This document shows, in pieces, positions 6,370 to 6,855 of a stretch of 64,000 bases of DNA. This stretch comes from Escherichia coli (GTDB taxonomy: Bacteria > Pseudomonadota > Gammaproteobacteria > Enterobacterales > Enterobacteriaceae). Location: the NCBI RefSeq assembly GCF_002854065.1, contig NZ_CP024147.1. One strand, written 5' to 3'. Position 1 is the first letter of the stretch. Each line of letters begins with the position of its first letter. The notes beneath the pieces are model-generated. The model saw only the letters and a program-made list of their open reading frames with translations, was not told the origin of the DNA and searched no databases. A program made the translations under genes and the position numbers.

Positions 6370-6855
<486 letters not shown>

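Follow-up and report, generated by a model that had tools for sequence, protein, structure and literature searches.

The ribosomal protein S7 gene rpsG of the window, the 64,000-nucleotide stretch of Escherichia coli DNA analyzed here, ends with a TAA at codon 157 and encodes a protein of 156 residues. This TAA is almost certainly the ancestral wild-type stop codon, and the 179-residue S7 of E. coli K-12 strains MG1655, W3110 and EMG2 would be the product of a derived stop-loss in the K-12 pedigree (a probability of about 0.97, judged from sequence comparisons). In the wild type, ribosomes would end S7 at residue 156 on a UAA-U signal, releasing the canonical bacterial S7. The following 96 nt would remain an untranslated spacer before fusA, the gene for elongation factor G. 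In the K-12 laboratory pedigree, one A-to-T change would have converted TAA into TTA, and ribosomes would proceed for 23 further codons to a UGA located 27 nt before fusA. The rpsG of the window is the normal allele of an already published K-12-specific polymorphism and involves no new biology. Its presence here would reflect the descent of the DNA from a natural lineage of the species that is not related to K-12.

The rpsG stop codon in the window and in reference genomes

The rpsG open reading frame starts with ATG, and its translation has the C-terminus KAFAHYRW. On the minus strand, the end of the gene reads CGT TGG TAA TCC. A stop at codon 157 behind a 156-aa product ending in HYRW identifies the short ('B-type') allele. 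The first-pass annotation had placed the end of a 156-aa form at positions 6370-6372; the open reading frame list and the minus-strand reading locate the TAA at exactly these coordinates. The S7 sequence yielded 236.7 bits with the equivalog profile TIGR01029 (rpsG_bact, NCBIfam), the cut-off being 135.85. Residues 3-156 correspond to profile positions 1-154 of 154, an end-to-end coverage that places the protein in the bacterial uS7 family. A chance occurrence is not the issue, because the stop terminates a real and highly conserved gene. In the near-identical genome of strain CUWW06, the same interval carries an rpsG annotation (WP_001138043.1). The protein is identical to the 156-aa chain of E. 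coli S7 present in 44 PDB entries, which suggests incorporation into the 30S subunit and binding to 16S rRNA.

The rpsG 3' end was aligned with those of K-12 and E. coli B. The compared stretch of 540 nt began with the rpsG start codon and ended with the downstream TGA, and so covered the gene and the latent extension. MG1655 (NC_000913.3) has all 540 nt annotated as rpsG (b3341, NP_417800.1) and reads TGG TTA TCC. W3110-P also carries TTA and encodes a 179-aa S7 ending in LGYLN. REL606, an E. coli B strain, has an rpsG of 471 nt (ECB_RS16890) and reads TGG TAA TCC. The only mismatch to MG1655 is at nucleotide 470 (window position 6371), where the window has A and MG1655 has T. With this A, the window does not have the MG1655-type extended allele, which consists of TTA at codon 157 and a stop at the downstream TGA. 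The attribution of the 179-aa S7 of K-12 to a change at the stop codon, made in the first-pass annotation, agrees with this sole difference in 540 nt.

Over the same 540 nt, the window is identical to REL606, CUWW06 and NCM3722. The wild-type S7 locus represented by WP_001138043.1, e.g. in REL606, shares the TAA, the 156-aa protein and the place between rpsL and fusA. The surroundings in REL606 differ from the window, with 427 mismatches in 29.3 kb aligned. In MG1655, W3110 and EMG2, the first 156 residues of S7 are identical to the window protein, and in the DNA the 22 codons and the TGA that follow are also shared. These codons form a latent extension frame, which is untranslated in the window and equals S7 residues 158-179 in MG1655-type K-12. 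It lies outside the TIGR01029 profile. The 179-aa S7 of K-12 likewise matches the profile over residues 3-156, and its last 23 residues are outside the model. The coordinates of these features are collected in the table.

Table. Position of rpsG, its stop codon and neighboring elements in the window
Feature	Coordinates	Strand	Basis or remark
rpsG (30S ribosomal protein S7/uS7), short wild-type form	6370..6840	minus	156 codons and TAA; open reading frame list, TIGR01029, CUWW06 annotation
TAA stop, codon 157, UAA-U context	6370..6372 (6372..6370)	minus	sequence reading, genome comparison
Latent extension frame past the rpsG stop, 22 sense codons, then TGA (6303..6301)	6301..6369	minus	translation through the stop
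rpsG-fusA intercistronic spacer, 96 nt	6274..6369	minus	27 nt in MG1655-type K-12
Predicted GC-rich hairpin in the rpsG-fusA spacer	6311..6355	minus	minimum-free-energy and centroid folds
rpsL (S12), upstream cistron of the str operon	6937..7311	minus	open reading frame; CUWW06 annotation WP_000246815.1, an accession also of K-12
fusA (elongation factor G), next cistron	4159..6273	minus	open reading frame; CUWW06 annotation; ATG at 6273
tuf	2904..4088	minus	membership in the str operon

The long-form rpsG of K-12 is labeled a pseudogene in two RefSeq/PGAP annotations, those of W3110-P (NZ_CP084899.2, locus L001, 1161-1628) and of one MG1655 assembly (NZ_CP025268.1, locus L004, 19561-20028). 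The label reads 'incomplete; partial in the middle of a contig; missing C-terminus' and covers 468 nt, while NC_000913.3 has the full 540 nt. This pseudogene annotation looks like an artefact of the stop-loss allele.

The rpsG-fusA spacer and the termination of S7

The window has the str operon order rpsL-rpsG-fusA-tuf(A), with all genes on the minus strand. The wild-type region of S12 (10 residues) is present in rpsL. A strong sigma-70-like site is located upstream of rpsL on the minus strand (7386-7414), where the str operon promoter is expected; it comprises TTGACA, a 17-nt spacer and TAAAAT, with 11 of 12 positions matching. The fusA start is preceded by the Shine-Dalgarno motif GAGG at 6283..6280. 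The wild-type stop is 96 nt away from fusA, and the second stop, TGA, 27 nt. Thus, translation of rpsG ends on UAA 96 nt before fusA in the window, whereas MG1655-type K-12 reads codon 157 as TTA (Leu) and ends on UGA 27 nt before fusA (rpsG end 3473542 and fusA start 3473514 in MG1655).

A GC-rich hairpin is predicted within the spacer. Its core, 6318..6347, is GGCGGGCGCUU-CCAGU-AAGCAGCCCGCU. It is situated 3' of the wild-type stop, but within the S7 extension of K-12. The folding z-score of -1.67 is not significant. The predicted structure is kept in Salmonella and Enterobacter, with a compensatory change in only 2 of 29 pairs among six sequences, hence little covariation. A terminator was not called for the hairpin, and no part of the window scored above the threshold of an Rfam family. 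On these four grounds, the hairpin is not claimed as a functional element. Inspection by eye shows GC-rich inverted repeats, with another sequence, also in the spacers of Pantoea and Xenorhabdus.

The downstream frame may alternatively function in the wild type, if low-level readthrough of the UAA yielded a minor extended S7 isoform. The 22 codons are open in E. coli, the frame is open in Salmonella and Enterobacter, and its start, SLRS.SHQAGAS, is conserved. This conservation coincides with the hairpin at the nucleotide level. The remaining positions change non-conservatively, and the frame is interrupted early in Xenorhabdus. UAA-U is regarded as the most efficient stop context in E. coli, and experimental support for such an isoform was not found in the literature searched. 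Readthrough of this kind is very improbable.

Efficient termination at residue 156 is the preferred reading for the window. In K-12, the extended S7 ends at a UGA that is poorly read by the K-12 release factor RF2 (Thr246), resulting in SsrA tagging of S7, according to a passage in PMC9997739 (citing Schaub & Hayes 2011; Collier et al. 2002). The window S7, with its UAA-U, would be expected to terminate efficiently and to escape such SsrA tagging. A literature search on MRE600 and S7 gave no match.

In K-12, the S7 frame crosses the hairpin and closes 27 nt short of fusA, and wild-type ribosomes stop 96 nt before fusA, ahead of the hairpin. Because of this arrangement, it is conceivable, though rather unlikely, that wild-type E. 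coli and K-12 of the MG1655 type differ measurably in rpsG-fusA translational coupling, or in the stability or processing of the junction, and that the hairpin could be an unrecognized regulatory element. If the classic work on str operon regulation relied on K-12 sequence, its results may not hold for wild-type E. coli.

Direction of the change at codon 157

The loci of Salmonella, Enterobacter, Pantoea and Xenorhabdus have an rpsG of 471 nt, ending in KAFAHYRW and a TAA followed by T. Their rpsG-fusA spacers measure 96, 96, 89 and 93 nt, respectively. At NCBI, the identical 156-aa sequence bears the name 'MULTISPECIES ... [Enterobacteriaceae]'. The earlier statement that the short form occurs in most other enterobacteria is in line with these four genera and the NCBI label. 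In the PDB, only K-12-derived E. coli chains (179 and 178 residues) extend past residue 156. S7 chains of other bacteria have about 150-158 residues and align to residues 1-156 of the query only; no solved S7 structure in the PDB from outside E. coli reaches beyond residue 156.

The frequency of the two alleles was determined with a 59-base query centered on the rpsG stop in 5,425 complete E. coli genomes. The 59-mer of the window was 100% identical in 5,063 of them (about 93%), and the K-12 59-mer was found exactly in 348. Fourteen genomes matched neither 59-mer exactly. The first 60 of the 348 genomes with the K-12 allele were inspected by name, and all were laboratory K-12 derivatives, including MG1655, C600, J53, DH5alpha, DH1 and HMS174. 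A rare natural isolate with TTA may exist among the K-12-allele genomes, since only 60 of the 348 were inspected by name. An exact-protein look-up of the 179-aa S7 revealed six distinct contexts, each with 3-7 mismatches to MG1655 over 14-20 kb; some of them are genome-reduced or engineered derivatives. The underlying collection contained 5,426 complete genomes; in one of them the rpsG 3' end was not matched, and one genome had its match on a plasmid-labeled record.

These data also bear on the opposite direction of change, in which the long form is ancestral and S7 was later truncated by a nonsense mutation to the TAA of the window. The open frame past the stop, described above for E. coli, Salmonella and Enterobacter, is compatible with such a history. 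Four outgroup genera and about 93% of the E. coli genomes stop at the same TAA, and residue 156 is also the last one covered by the S7 family profile. The downstream 'peptide' shows non-conservative substitutions between genera, and in Xenorhabdus its codon 5 is a stop. With the outgroups against it, an ancestral long form is effectively refuted. The polarity in outgroups and in the population points to TAA as the ancestral state and to TTA of K-12 as the derived one.

The K-12 strains themselves are divided at this codon. A comparison of LS5218 with MG1655 listed 'rpsG T->A Leu157*', a difference in common with NCM3722 (PMC5699524). NCM3722 (NZ_CP011495.1, 'isolate K-12') has a 471-nt rpsG with TAA (WP_001138043.1), and its flanks show two differences to MG1655 in 22,661 positions. 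The rpsG mutation has been described as common to EMG2, MG1655 and W3110, while WG1, like NCM3722 and LS5218, belongs to a distinct branch (PMC9997739). The split of NCM3722 and LS5218 with TAA from MG1655, W3110 and EMG2 with TTA indicates that the stop-loss arose within the K-12 laboratory pedigree.

In Salmonella (contig from the Logan assembly of SRR3173559, locus L013, 1972-2100), the frame past the rpsG TAA is not closed by a stop but leads in frame into fusA. A K-12-type stop-loss would therefore fuse S7 to elongation factor G in this genus. In E. coli, the TGA after 22 codons prevents an S7/EF-G fusion upon stop-loss.

Lineage of the window

The window and MG1655 differ by 284 mismatches in 23,549 aligned nucleotides without gaps. 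Against NCM3722, 217 mismatches were counted in 18,568 positions (1.2% divergence). An IS-free query of 24 kb matched CUWW06, a wastewater isolate from Thailand, with about 100% identity, followed by two other isolates with 99.9% and 99.7% and by O157:H7 and O55:H7 strains with 99.3%. Across 50 kb, the window and CUWW06 are separated by seven substitutions and one extra IS1 in the window (99.98% identity). The chiA gene and gsp cluster, located upstream of tufA in K-12, and the frl genes of K-12 are absent from the window. Neither the near-identical flanks nor the chiA, gsp and frl content of the K-12 lineage are thus found. Judged by its sequence, the window represents a natural lineage of E. 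coli that is distant from K-12.

NCM3722, LS5218 and the WG1 type share with the window the TAA and the 156-aa S7. Given that the 540-nt rpsG of NCM3722 is the same as that of the window, the window itself might be such a K-12 strain that kept TAA, but its flanks diverge by 1.2% from the K-12 flanks of NCM3722, the K-12 genes chiA/gsp and frl are missing, and the closest relatives are CUWW06 and then isolates that include O157:H7 and O55:H7, so that this reading counts as refuted by flanking divergence. The short form had been called consistent with a non-K-12 lineage in the first-pass annotation, a view borne out by flanking divergence and gene content. The short form alone is not diagnostic, because the K-12 strains NCM3722 and LS5218 carry TAA too; the assignment of the lineage is based on the divergence of the flanks. 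A Shigella or otherwise unusual lineage, suggested by a query with window positions 20000-44000 (best match 97.8%, in pieces), was rejected: the query contained an IS1 and the matches were ranked by the product of coverage and identity, which made the result an artefact.

Several structural features were recorded in the surroundings. The region between rpsJ and tufA (1136-2903) is devoid of chiA and the gspA-M cluster, which K-12 and B carry. It contains only an open reading frame for a 155-aa prepilin peptidase (1514..1981), bfr (1978..2454) and bfd (2527..2721). The bfr/bfd stretch is 78.7% identical to K-12, and the flanks about 98.8%. An IS1 of 768 bp (32142-32909) with a 9-bp target duplication is inserted between cysG and yhfL and is absent in CUWW06. 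The frlABCDR genes, about 5.2 kb in K-12, B and EC24, are lacking between yhfL and yhfS (about 33236-33266). Since CUWW06 lacks them as well, their absence is a trait of the lineage and not an effect of the IS1. In CUWW06, yhfW (phosphopentomutase) is a pseudogene with an internal stop (locus L012, 36142-37368; about 36919-38145 in the window). The window is near-identical to CUWW06 at this site and probably shares the yhfW pseudogene.

The rpsG allele is a quick marker for K-12 of the MG1655/W3110/EMG2 type, but not for K-12 of the NCM3722 type. At codon 157, the MG1655 reference is the odd one out, and the 156-aa S7 is the norm for annotation and modelling of the E. coli ribosome.
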